Source: an uncultured Verrucomicrobiae bacterium (GTDB lineage Bacteria; Verrucomicrobiota; Verrucomicrobiia; Chthoniobacterales; Xiphinematobacteraceae). Taken from it: a stretch of DNA of 64,000 bases. The position numbers were made by a program, and so were the translations under genes. The stretch lies in NCBI GenBank assembly GCA_963706715.1, contig CAVPNI010000003.1, positions 800,001-864,000 on the forward strand, given 5' to 3'. Below, in pieces: positions 2,618-43,829 of this stretch (position 1 is the stretch's first letter; every line of letters starts with the position of its first letter). Below the pieces are notes generated by a model, which was not told where the DNA came from, did not search any database, and saw nothing but the letters and a program-made list of their open reading frames with translations.

Positions 2618-5600
2618 ATGCTTGAGGCTGATAAATGTAGAGTAAATTATTGCCCAGGGAGTAGCACATCAGACATCAGTGCATTGAAGGAAACTAATAG
2701 CGATAAGTTTCACAAAGATCCGCCGTCATTTCCGGTCTCAGCAGCGCAACGCGAGATGTGGCTGGCTCAAAAATTGTTTCCCGAGCGCTCCTTTTCTATC
2801 GCTGAATATGCGGAAATCGATGGGCCGCTTGACATAGATACTTTCTCGAAGGCGATCACACTTACCGTGGCAAAAACCGCCGCACTACAGGCTCGATTTG
2901 CATTCATCAATGAGCAGTTGGTCCAGTCGTTTGAAATACCGGTTCATGAAGTGTTATCCGTTGTAGATTTGTGTGCATCTGAAGAAGCGCTTTCAGATGC
3001 GCATCACTGGATGCGAAAAGATCTTGCCCAGCCACGTCAACCTGAGGCGGGCGATCTTTTTATCTTTGTACTGTTTAAGCTCAGACCCGACCGTTTCATC
3101 TGGTATCAGCGCTATCAGCACATCATCATTGATGGATGTAGTCTTGCAATCATTGCCTGCCGTGTTGCCCAGATCTATGCCGCGTTGATTCATGAAGAGC
3201 CAATCCCAGAATCGGAAATGCTGGAATTTGACTTGCTAGCGCGGCACGACGCTGATTATCGAGGCTCTACACAGTTTCTTGCGGATAAGGCATTCTGGCA
3301 AGACTACCTAAACCGGGGCAATGAGCCGGCATGGCTATCCCTCCCTCCGGACCTGCGCGCCGATAGACAGAAATTGCGGGCTACGGCAAGTATTGCAGAG
3401 GAAGACATTCGTCGCTTGAAGCACATCACCCAGGCCATGGATGCACGCCAATCTCATCTCCTGATAGTAGCGCTTGGCATTCACTTTCACATCCTTACGG
3501 GTCAAACGCAGTTGAATTTCAGCCTTCCGGTTTCCAATCGGAGCAAGGATGAGATGGATACCCCAGGCATGACATCCAATGTCCTGCCATTGATCCTGCA
3601 GGTGAAGTCAAGCAGCTACCTGAGCAACATCGTCCAGGCTGTGGCCCATGAGGTCAGCCGAATTCTGCCGCACCAGCGTTATCGCATGGAAGAGATGCTG
3701 CGCGATGAGAGCATGGGACAAACTCGGTGGTTTGGGCCCACTATTAACCTGATAAAATTTGATCATGGTCCACCTTTTGCAGGGTGCCAATTGCGTTGGT
3801 TTATGCCATTAAACGACTTCGGTCGTGGATTTCACGTGACCTTCTATCAGCCTGGCAATGGTCAAGGACTGCAAGTTTTCTTCGAAGATGATACCGCTGT
3901 CCATACGTTCGCAGAATTGCAAGCCCATCAGCAGCTTTTTTTGAGCATTCTGGAAGCATTTATCCACAATCCGGATCAGACTGTGGAGGCTGTTGCAACC
4001 GGGTGTTTCGATCGATGGGGCCATGCGCTAAGCGGGAGTGTTTTTGCTCACCGTCGCAAGCCAATTGCAGCAGGTTGTCTACGATGGCGCCAACCTGCAC
4101 AGAATCTGGCTACTTTGGTTCGTGCGCTGGATTTTGGGAATTCCGCACCCAATCCGCTCGGCTTACCCAAGATTCTGCTGAAAAACCGTTTTGTTTGTGC
4201 AATGCGGTTAGAAGTTCTTAAGCAATGTTCGGGAGCTGCGCCAGGAACATTGCTGCGGATTGGACAGAATGATTGGGAGGTCGCCAGCGGCAGTGAAGAC
4301 GTCTGTATTGGACACTTTACCAGTCTCACAGGTGAAGCGCTGGATGCTAGAGAAATCGCGCAACAGGAAGGCCTCTCCGAAGGAGATTGCTTGCCAGAGA
4401 TTACGGACGATCAAGCAAACAGGCTGATGGAAACATATCAGCTCGTGCGAGATCATGAGTCCTTCTGGTCTGCGCGACTTGCTCGGTTTACTCCCCTTCA
4501 ATTTCCATTTGCGTGGAATCACAAAACATCCGAGGCGCCATCCTGGCAAATCAGTCCATGGCATTTACCCGAGGCATTCAAGCACTTTGCTCTTGAAGAA
4601 CGCTGTCAATATTTGATCAGTGTCTTGTGCGTTTATTGGGCACGTATTACAGGGGAAACCCAGTTTCAGATGGGATGGGGTCATAACCATTTAGCAAATG
4701 AGCAACCACCCAATTTCTATGCACAAACCGTTCCGATGGACGTCTCTATCGACCCAGAGGCAAATTTTGCTGAAGTCTATGAGAACATAGGAGAGGAAAT
4801 AGCTCGTTTGGAAAAACATCGAACATTTGCGATGGATCTTGTTGCGCGCCATATTGCACTGAGTGCAATAAGCAGTTTGCACATACCTCATCCTTGGAAG
4901 GTGGCCGTTGCGGTGTGGAATGGTGAAGGTGATGATACCTCCCTCGAAGCCGAAGTACACGGAGAGCTAGCCACCTTTCGAATTAATATGCGGGATGGCA
5001 GCTTCAGATGGCATTACGATGCATCGCGCGTATCAGGCAAACAGATTGATCGTATGACGGGGCATCTGCTGGAATTGACACAAACCGTGATGGCTTCAGA
5101 TGTGACCCCAGTAAAGCGGCTCAATTTACTACCTGAGTCTGAGCGGACACTACTACTACAAACGTGGAACGAGACGCAGAGGGACTATCCGGCCGATCAA
5201 TGCCTGCACCAGTTGTTTGAGCAACAGGTAGAGCGCACTCCTCATGCCATTGCTCTGGTGTATGAGGAAGAGACTCTCACCTATGCCGAACTCAATGCGC
5301 GAGCCAATCGGCTCGCCCATGAGCTTATCGAACTGGGTATCGAGCCAGACGTGCAGGTAGCCATTTGCGTTGAGCGCTCCCTGGCAATGATCGTAGGGCT
5401 GTTAGCCATCCTCAAGGCTGGTGGCGCCTATGTGCCACTGGACCCAGCCTACCCAGGTGAGCGACTGGCTCACATCCTGGCTGATGCAAATCCTCAGATC
5501 CTGTTAGCAGATGAAACAGGCCGCACTACCTTAGGCGAAGCCTTGCTCTCCCATGTTGTGCTCGATCCGAACACCCTGCCCAGCCAGCCGGAGACCAACC

Positions 5601-43829: not shown

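Follow-up and report, generated by a model that had tools for sequence, protein, structure and literature searches.

The locus described here raises the question of which product a very large nonribosomal peptide synthetase (NRPS), encoded by an uncultured verrucomicrobium, would assemble, and whether this enzyme still operates as an assembly line. The window, i.e., the whole stretch of DNA that was analyzed, comprises 64,000 nucleotides (nt) and corresponds to positions 800,001 to 864,000 of contig CAVPNI010000003.1 (assembly GCA_963706715.1). Within it, the synthetase is encoded on the forward strand by two overlapping open reading frames (ORFs). ORF1 (2618-13444) encodes subunit 1 of 3608 amino acids (aa), which carries a starter condensation domain, a relic region and modules 1-3, and ORF2 (13428-43829) encodes subunit 2 of 10133 aa, which carries modules 4-12 and two terminal thioesterase (TE) domains. 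This synthetase is real, intact, orphan and probably functional. The reading favored here, to which a probability of about three in four is assigned, is that of a functional two-subunit NRPS making an N-acylated dodecapeptide, whose initiation module would contain a 400-aa scaffold inherited from a formyl-type starter.

Module organization and predicted peptide

The two ORFs comprise 13,741 codons without a stop, over ~41 kb. A motif scan of both ORFs revealed the adenylation (A) motifs A3, A8 and A10 in 12 copies each, the carrier motif GGHSL of the thiolation (T) domains likewise in 12 copies and HHIVSDG in four, and every core motif of the A, T and condensation (C) domains was intact. Since all core motifs are preserved in a 41-kb open frame, the feature lies far beyond chance. 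Over the pieces scanned with Pfam, the counts were the same for AMP-binding (3+5+4=12), Condensation (3+5+4=12) and PP-binding (3+4+5=12), and two Thioesterase stretches were found. These correspond to thioesterase 1 (42195-42923; GYSSG, with the His in GNHSTM) and thioesterase 2 (43050-43781; GHSYG, with the His in GPGHHF), placed in tandem near the end of ORF2, both with GxSxG and an intact serine. A scan of the host's own genome with the Condensation model gave 12 matches inside ORF1 and ORF2 and no 13th, and the lack of an additional match of the epimerization (E) type implies that there are no separate E domains. The repeated C-A-T organization of modular type-I NRPSs, with intact A cores and the carrier serine, was found in 12 of 12 modules, and both the reading frame and the C-A-T order were continuous over each module junction. 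A preliminary description, made from the letters of the window without database searches, had placed a starter C domain, 12 A-T modules and TE-TE between these coordinates, and the ORFs, the motif scan and Pfam bear this out. It had also ascribed to the locus the combination of a starter C, dual epimerization/condensation (E/C) domains and TE-TE. All of these were found, as was the lack of E domains, and together they are the features by which a Pseudomonas-type lipopeptide synthetase is suspected (PMC3897469 and PMC10531924).

The assignment of the C domains to classes was based on their motifs and mutual identities. Seven of the 12 (modules 2, 3, 6, 7, 8, 9 and 12) presented HHLLAxxGD ~74 residues into the excised piece, together with HHLIxDHS at the active site, and were 83-98% identical to one another. 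Those of modules 4, 5, 10 and 11, referred to as LCL, presented only HHIVSDG, with 94-98% identity among themselves and 28-33% to the E/C group. The remaining domain is the starter C, and both E/C motifs are held by 7 of the 11 elongation C domains. The C domain of module 2, of the E/C type, matched the D-donor-accepting C domains PvdL C3 (E 1.3e-53) and McyB C1 (E 1e-56), whereas its match to the LCL domain of SrfA-C was far weaker (E 3.9e-27). In the available text on Pseudomonas lipopeptide synthetases, dual E/C domains are marked by HH[I/L]xxxxGD and HHxxxDH (PMC10531924), and the presence of a starter C and tandem TE, with no E domains, is taken as grounds for seeking them (PMC3897469). 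The same division into classes, module by module, had been proposed in the preliminary description and is upheld by the motifs and the identity groups. Residues 1, 2, 5, 6, 7, 8 and 11 are predicted to be D-configured, an assignment that is provisional because 74 of the 468 E/C domains of known behavior compiled in PMC10531924 do not epimerize.

The specificity of each A domain was predicted from ten code positions, which were read from an alignment of the 12 A domains and placed by what we take to be the GrsA-PheA numbering; the placement was checked internally only, with the two Thr-type and the two Asp-type domains giving textbook codes. Module 1 (A-T, 5198-6907) presented the code DASTIAAVCK, which, from what we take to be the Stachelhaus code, is Tyr-type. 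Module 11 (LCL-A-T, 35757-38909) presented DAWTIAAVCK, presumably Phe-type by the same code, with a single position separating it from module 1 (Trp in place of Ser), and DLYNHALTYK of module 8 (E/C-A-T, 26160-29357) is presumably Ala-like. The code DAFVFVGTFK was shared by modules 4 (13428-16553), 5 (16554-19721) and 10 (32583-35756), all LCL-A-T, and falls in the Val/Ile clade. Modules 2 and 9 (both E/C-A-T, 6908-10135 and 29358-32582) shared the Asp-type code DLTKVGHVGK, and modules 3 and 6 (both E/C-A-T, 10136-13363 and 19722-22955) shared the Thr-type code DFWNIGMVHK. In the available text of PMC12283262, the former is found in Asp- and some Asn-activating domains and the latter is given for Thr and its derivatives. 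Lastly, module 7 (E/C-A-T, 22956-26159; DATKVAEVGK) and module 12 (E/C-A-T, 38910-42122; DITKVGEVGK) are read as Asn-type, each being one position off, i.e., identical at 9 of 10 positions to, the published Asn code DATKVGEVGK, which is found along with Thr and Val codes in Table 2 of PMC3547906.

The residue selected by modules 4, 5 and 10 is designated X. The A domain of module 4 was searched against longer proteins, and codes were extracted from the domains aligned out of 120 proteins. Among the matches listed, the closest full-length relatives (60-65% identity) belonged to Mortierellaceae fungi, Photorhabdus and Mycetohabitans, and presented the codes DAFWIGGTFK, DAFFLGCTFK or DAFFLGGTFK. 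DAFVFVGTFK was found in none of the domains aligned from these proteins, nor in the searchable literature; the other unusual codes or code stems of the synthetase had no match in searchable papers, and none of the 12 code strings occurred in the supplement of PMC12283262, which may not carry codes as plain text. These relatives point to X (residues 4, 5 and 10) being a residue of the Val/Ile clade, with three altered pocket positions. The predicted product would be acyl-Tyr-Asp-Thr-X-X-Thr-Asn-Ala-Asp-X-Phe-Asn. The order of residues and the D/L pattern proposed in the preliminary description were reproduced by the codes and C classes, and the X that it had left unassigned kept its places in that order and was refined to the Val/Ile clade.

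In the proposed mechanism, the starter C would transfer an acyl group, probably of medium or long chain, onto the Tyr loaded on the T domain of module 1, and eleven C-A-T modules would extend it by Asp, Thr, X, X, Thr, Asn, Ala, Asp, X, Phe and Asn in turn. Each of the dual E/C domains, seven in all, would epimerize the residue delivered to it, giving rise to the D residues at the positions named above. Release would fall to the tandem thioesterases, which probably close a lactone onto Thr3 or Thr6. Such a product would be amphiphilic and net acidic, and may act on membranes. With 3-hydroxy acyl chains of C8-C14, its calculated monoisotopic mass would be 1498.72-1582.81 (linear) or 1480.71-1564.80 (lactone) for X = Val, and 1540.77-1624.86 (linear) or 1522.76-1606.85 (lactone) for X = Ile/Leu.

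The initiation module

The product of ORF1 begins with a starter condensation (Cs) domain (aa 37-458; 2726-3991), whose best solved relatives, homologous over its full length, are rhizomide RzmA-Cs (7c1k, E 3.5e-56) and CDA C1 (4jn3, E 1.7e-42). Its active site reads QHIIIDG, in which the second, catalytic His is kept. According to PMC7804268, this second His serves to position both substrates, and in the acetyl-loading RzmA the acyl pocket is closed off by R148. A Leu occupies the position aligned to R148 in the present Cs, which may be compatible with a longer acyl chain.

The A domain of module 1 starts ~860 residues into ORF1 and not at ~460, leaving ~400 aa between Cs and A1. The preliminary description had correctly listed the starter C, but overlooked this relic. 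It consists of a beta barrel resembling the C-terminal domain of formyltransferases (aa ~478-594; 4049-4399), followed by the back half, or C-terminal lobe, of a condensation domain (aa ~596-858; 4403-5191), without the lobe that carries HHxxxDG. The barrel was recognized by Pfam PF02911 (Formyl_trans_C) with E 4.8e-7 and 30.3 bits, above the cut-off of 21.1, and Condensation covered the half C from profile positions 191/254 to 455 only. The catalytic Formyl_trans_N (PF00551) had no match in ORF1 at E <= 1e-3, nor in aa 459-670 at E <= 1. An AlphaFold model of the aa 459-860 stretch, built from 29 aligned sequences, reached a predicted local distance difference test (pLDDT) of 89.4 and a predicted template modeling score (pTM) of 0.87. 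With Foldseek, the whole model matched only C domains in the PDB, with a root-mean-square deviation (rmsd) of ~10-12 Å, and the domain-wise matches were obtained from VIA-align: residues 20-136 of the model matched the C-domain of Met-tRNA formyltransferase (Fmt 3tqq, Z 14.0, rmsd 2.5 Å, 110 aligned) and that of ArnA (1z7e, Z 13.7), and residues 149-380 matched the C-terminal lobe of a C domain (2jgp, Z 19.2, rmsd 3.4, 220 aligned). Five columns were invariant and ten nearly invariant across the 29 sequences, which argues that the relic scaffold is under constraint.

The distribution of this unit was assessed by searching aa 459-670 against 1.8 billion representatives, which gave 1018 proteins at E <= 1e-3, of which 485 reached E <= 1e-10. 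Among the 150 matches listed, the order Fmt-C-like part, half C and A was the rule; a Cs-like domain directly preceded the Fmt-C-like part in seven, the unit lay inside a longer protein in three, and in the remaining ones the Fmt-C-like part began before residue ~300. When nine of these matches were scanned with Pfam, it emerged that Formyl_trans_N precedes the Fmt-C-like part in all seven proteins in which this begins at residue ~190-230, and Condensation precedes it in both proteins in which it begins at residue ~460-495. A search with the first 900 aa gave 117 other proteins for examination, and 16 of these had the full order of Cs, Fmt-C-like part, half C and A. The best of them, and the closest initiation module found elsewhere, was the Joint Genome Institute (JGI) protein P0152, with 42% identity, followed by proteins of Serratia (3699-5954 aa, most of 5926-5954; 34-35%), Yersinia nurmii (33%) and Erwinia amylovora (3811 aa; 27-28%). 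When the first 861 aa were compared with named genomes, the host's own excluded, ten loci were found, the best in Enterobacillus tribolii with 32% identity.

Relative to formyl-type starters, the succession of Formyl_trans_C barrel, C-lobe and A is present here and Formyl_trans_N is absent. We read this arrangement as the catalytic half of a formyl-type starter having been swapped for a lipo-initiation domain, with the non-catalytic scaffold kept; the 400 aa between Cs and A1 would be that scaffold, its catalytic half replaced by Cs. Because Formyl_trans_N is missing and Cs stands in its place, N-acylation and not N-formylation would be expected.

Duplication, surroundings and condition of the locus

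In the 12-domain alignment, the A domains hardly differed except in the part that runs from motif A3 to motif A6, and the modules were paired as 4/5/10, 2/9, 3/6, 7/12 and 1/11. The best repeat pair at the DNA level joined 12617-18139 to 31839-37348 (96.9% over 5.5 kb), and others joined 6125-10054 to 28575-32501 (94.6%), 9343-13285 to 18929-22877 (91.9%) and 22209-26074 to 38163-42037 (89.2%), with the repeats of the 3.9-kb class reported at 94.6-95.6%. Six paralogous module pairs displayed a synonymous divergence (dS) of 0.024-0.405 and a ratio of nonsynonymous to synonymous divergence (dN/dS) of 0.15-0.26, from which it follows that the duplicates have been kept under purifying selection. 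By these measures, the modules are recent internal duplicates.

The GC content was 52-57% in the NRPS genes and 37-50% in the flanks. At third codon positions (GC3), the unique parts of the synthetase, namely the Cs to half-C region (0.49) and TE-TE (0.45), and the specificity cores of 9 of the 12 A domains (0.43-0.50), compare with 0.41-0.49 in five neighboring housekeeping genes, whereas the repeated flanks of the A domains reached 0.53-0.61 and 300-codon windows along both ORFs reached up to 0.65. The core lay below both flanks in 10 of the 12 modules, and the excess was confined to the homogenized repeat parts. This pattern suggests GC-biased gene conversion among modules, or the spread of one GC-richer module, either of which would explain it. 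Recent wholesale import, for which the GC content might be taken as a sign, was set aside because the unique NRPS parts are host-like in GC3.

The stop of ORF1 and the start of ORF2 overlap by 17 nt (13428-13444) inside a T-C linker, as seen in the ORF list and the linker alignment. Relative to the T4-C5, T9-C10 and T10-C11 linkers, which are continuous, the junction differs by +3, -1, +4 and +10 nt, and this net insertion of 16 nt creates the stop and the overlapping ATG, leaving both subunits domain-complete.

The host genome comprises 3.04 Mb in 4 contigs, with 100% completeness, and belongs to Verrucomicrobiota. The ilvD gene lies upstream of the NRPS, and its product is 78-81% identical to named Verrucomicrobiota proteins, e.g., 80% to that of Terrimicrobium sacchariphilum. 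Downstream lies transposase debris on the reverse strand (43822-45197), followed by housekeeping genes. This debris comprises an IS66-family fragment of 63 aa (43822-44013), which begins 8 nt before the ORF2 stop, and an IS630-family gene broken in three (44113-45197), one part with HTH_Tnp_IS630 and two with DDE_3. The two same-genus genomes are single contigs of ~0.9 Mb and, by that size, strongly reduced; 'Ca. Xiphinematobacter' is a lineage of this kind. Among 400 further genomes sampled from the phylum, no match was obtained in the two of the same genus or in the seven of the same order, and two of the 400, which share one genus, matched weakly (26-28% identity) and over the part from the Fmt-C-like barrel to the half C only. 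The synteny of ilvD and an M16 peptidase gene with relatives did not define the insertion site, the M16 orthologue being missing in the reduced genomes; in one of these (C1:33836-35524), the ilvD match contains an in-frame TAA, and the gene may be decaying there. Two Sfp-type phosphopantetheinyl transferases are encoded in the host genome, and MbtH had no match in it; to our knowledge, lipopeptide lines of the Cs, E/C and TE-TE kind need no MbtH. Promoter and terminator scans of the locus gave numbers not above those in shuffles. Among the sequencing runs listed, two DNA runs contained a small share of the stretch, and one soil run contained two 151-nt contigs (depth 2) identical to 3121-3393, its other matches being less than 90% alike and derived from NRPS genes of other organisms. 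The organism or the gene may occur in soil, and the soil run may be the source sample itself.

Several points weigh against the favored reading. In the Cs motif, Gln stands in place of the first His. No regulator or exporter domain was found in the 17 flanking ORFs of at least 150 aa, to which this search was confined, and Pseudomonas-type lipopeptide loci carry flanking LuxR-type regulators and MacAB/outer-membrane export genes. No obvious ribosome-binding site was seen at the ORF1/ORF2 split, which could be a recent disruption and not a designed boundary, because its net 16-nt insertion interrupts a linker of which three paralogous copies are continuous. None of the listed runs that contained the stretch was an RNA run, which is not evidence either way on expression. 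The code positions rest on a GrsA numbering that we take to be correct, with the internal check confined to the Thr and Asp domains, and DAFVFVGTFK, which had no match, departs from the Val code at three positions of the pocket, so that X is assigned to a clade only. Also, roughly every sixth E/C domain of known behavior does not epimerize (PMC10531924).

Some of these observations would be expected if the locus were a decaying relic, no longer expressed as a working line, that had been split by a frameshift and stripped of its exporter and regulator in a reduction-prone lineage. The insertion that makes the stop/start overlap, the IS66 and IS630 fragments abutting the 3′ end, the flanks devoid of transporter or regulator genes, and the 0.9-Mb genomes of the same genus without the gene would all fit such decay. 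However, the split falls exactly at a T-C boundary, the usual site of NRPS subunit breaks, and leaves both subunits complete; moreover, the stop-free 13,741 codons, the intact core motifs of 12 A, 12 T and 12 C domains and both TE serines, the dN/dS of 0.15-0.26 and the two retained Sfp-type enzymes make this explanation improbable. It is also quite improbable that the number or order of modules is an assembly artefact produced by the collapse or expansion of near-identical modules. Internal repeats of up to 5.5 kb at 96.9%, and of 3.9 kb at 94.6-95.6%, would favor such an error; the assembly broke once in an NRPS region, as contig C3, on which the locus lies, begins inside another NRPS gene, and the only exact read-derived matches are the two soil-metagenome contigs mentioned above. 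Nevertheless, no repeat pair is identical, so that long or accurate reads can resolve them, the frame and C-A-T order are unbroken across every junction, and a 3.04-Mb genome in 4 contigs with 100% completeness suggests that long reads were used.

Very improbable, in turn, is that the product belongs to an already described family, be it of the fusaricidin, calcium-dependent or Pseudomonas lipopeptide type, that was missed by the searches. Calcium-dependent lipopeptide antibiotics hold an Asp-X-Asp-Gly motif in the ring, and this motif is absent from the predicted peptide, whose positions 7-10 read Asn-type, Ala-like, Asp-type and Val-clade in the 12 codes. The protein was a singleton, with the nearest relatives at 42% for the initiation module and at most 65% for the A domain of module 4. 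Residues 3-8 would follow the fusaricidin order if X is Val-like, with four of six predicted configurations in agreement, but the fusaricidin synthetase has six modules and closes its ring at Ala6, whereas Ala8 is internal to a 12-mer here (PMC10562733, available in part). Symbiosin, considered on account of matches in Mycoavidus, was rejected as it is a hexapeptide from seven modules (PMC9769094), and glidonins differ in sequence and by a 13th module (available text of PMC10587159). A functional two-subunit NRPS making an N-acylated dodecapeptide is the reading retained.

Other genes were noted around the locus. Two ORFs (45658-47322, 554 aa; 52180-53727, 515 aa) had no family match above noise and a GC3 of 0.29 and 0.26, respectively, against 0.41-0.49 in housekeeping genes; the former contains a zinc-protease-like motif, HEFVH, and a faint match to the Peptidase_M91 'effector protein' family (E 0.1), and both may encode secreted or host-interaction proteins. 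The ORF at 54058-55206 encodes a DnaJ-family protein with the J domain from residue 76 and no zinc-finger reported between the J and C-terminal domains. On the reverse strand, 55185-63060 holds genes for a glycosyltransferase, a hexapeptide-transferase, four methyltransferase-domain proteins and an RmlD-like reductase, probably a cluster for glycan or polysaccharide modification. Outside the window, the first 16,000 nt (1-16000) of contig C3 open with an open-ended A-T-TE piece of the NRPS gene mentioned above, after which comes a 4170-aa, four-module A-T-(C-A-T)x3-TE synthetase with at most 50% aa identity to the ORF1/ORF2 enzyme, and this is a second, unrelated peptide pathway. On contig C2 (537667-541266), a stand-alone protein of 1199 aa carries a single Condensation and a single AMP-binding domain.

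Should the enzyme be active, its product would be a lipopeptide of new structure, made in a phylum of which hardly any natural products have been characterized. According to a 2017 paper (PMC5698493), only one verrucomicrobial species had been tied to an isolated metabolite, and a 2025 review describes Verrucomicrobiota in terms of genomic potential only (PMC12714770). A broader proposal would hold that this is the first lipopeptide pathway of Verrucomicrobiota, carried by a free-living or facultative member of the genus with a 3-Mb genome, that its product is a new acidic lipododecapeptide with an embedded fusaricidin-like antifungal core, and that its starter arose by a domain swap; taken as a whole, it is unlikely. 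Were it true, the genus, otherwise known only from reduced 0.9-Mb genomes, would include a producer of a compound that may serve defence or host interaction, and the starter would record the replacement of a catalytic formyltransferase half by Cs, a natural blueprint for exchanging NRPS initiation chemistry. In any case, the locus is a clean natural example of assembly-line growth through whole-module duplications and homogenization outside the specificity cores, in which a Tyr-type and a Phe-type domain are only one code change apart, and its Cs/Fmt-C/half-C starter would indicate that a scaffold can be conserved while the initiation chemistry upstream of it is exchanged, a point of relevance to NRPS engineering. 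These findings leave what is known of the principles of NRPS function unchanged.

Comparison with known systems

The preliminary description could not match this synthetase to a characterized family, and this held true: the protein is a singleton in a collection of 5.8 billion proteins, the nearest initiation module shares 42% identity, and the unusual codes appear in no searchable paper. No matching described compound and no characterized Verrucomicrobiota lipopeptide were found in the searchable literature. The architecture is that of the Pseudomonas-type cyclic lipopeptide synthetases of the viscosin, amphisin, entolysin and tolaasin groups, with a starter C, dual E/C domains, no E domains and TE-TE, in colinear multi-gene C-A-T lines split at T-C boundaries (available text of PMC3897469 and PMC10531924). 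Unlike them, the present synthetase is hosted by a verrucomicrobium, is not flanked by regulator or export genes, contains an Fmt-C and half-C relic, and is predicted to make a peptide rich in Asp/Asn (Asx) and aromatic residues instead of Leu. Named Pseudomonas proteins shared little sequence with it, the identity being 24-26% in the initiation region and 47-54% in the A domain of module 4.

The closest counterparts of the initiation module are found in Enterobacterales (Serratia, Yersinia nurmii, Erwinia amylovora) and in P0152, which share the order of Cs, Fmt-C-like part, half C and A1 and cover the first 900 aa by 96-98% (Serratia, Yersinia and P0152) or 95-97% (Erwinia), but are only 27-42% identical to it. 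The size and species of the 5926-5954-aa Serratia proteins would be consistent with five-module, SwrA-like lipopeptide synthetases with pentapeptide products; swrA itself has five modules, and no relic-like insert is mentioned for it in PMC7767323. With formyl-type NRPS starters, made up of Formyl_trans_N, Formyl_trans_C, half C, A and T, the 400-aa unit between Cs and A1 shares homology to the post-catalytic part, whereas a starter C takes the place of Formyl_trans_N here.

The glidonin synthetase GdnA/GdnB of Schlegelella brevitalea resembles the present one in being a ~44-kb lipo-dodecapeptide line, with Cs and three modules followed by nine canonical modules, dual C/E domains and two TE serines. 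However, its 13th module adds putrescine, and glidonins are linear (Met/Phe-Asn-Pro-Val-Phe-Pro...). The 'FMT' named for glidonins was rejected as a relic-like domain, as it is a free housekeeping enzyme; these points all follow the available text of PMC10587159.

Finally, in the fusaricidins/LI-F of Paenibacillus polymyxa, made by FusA, the order of residues is L-Thr, D-Val, L-Val/Phe, D-allo-Thr, D-Asn and D-Ala, and across the family the third place may also be Tyr and the fifth Gln. Residues 3-8 of the predicted peptide (Thr-X-X-Thr-Asn-Ala) would follow this order if X is Val-like, which is a clade assignment only; the predicted D-allo-Thr, D-Asn and D-Ala fall in the same places, and the predicted configurations of the two Val-like residues are swapped. 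FusA differs in having six modules, a guanidino-hydroxy fatty acid on Thr1 and a ring from Ala6 to Thr1, whereas here the motif would be embedded in the 12-mer of a 12-module line, with Ala at the internal position 8 (fusaricidin data from the available text of PMC10562733). This likeness would be only a lead and not a sign of membership. Altogether, the starter scaffold is unusual but not unique, the host is unusual, and the machine itself is of a well-known kind.

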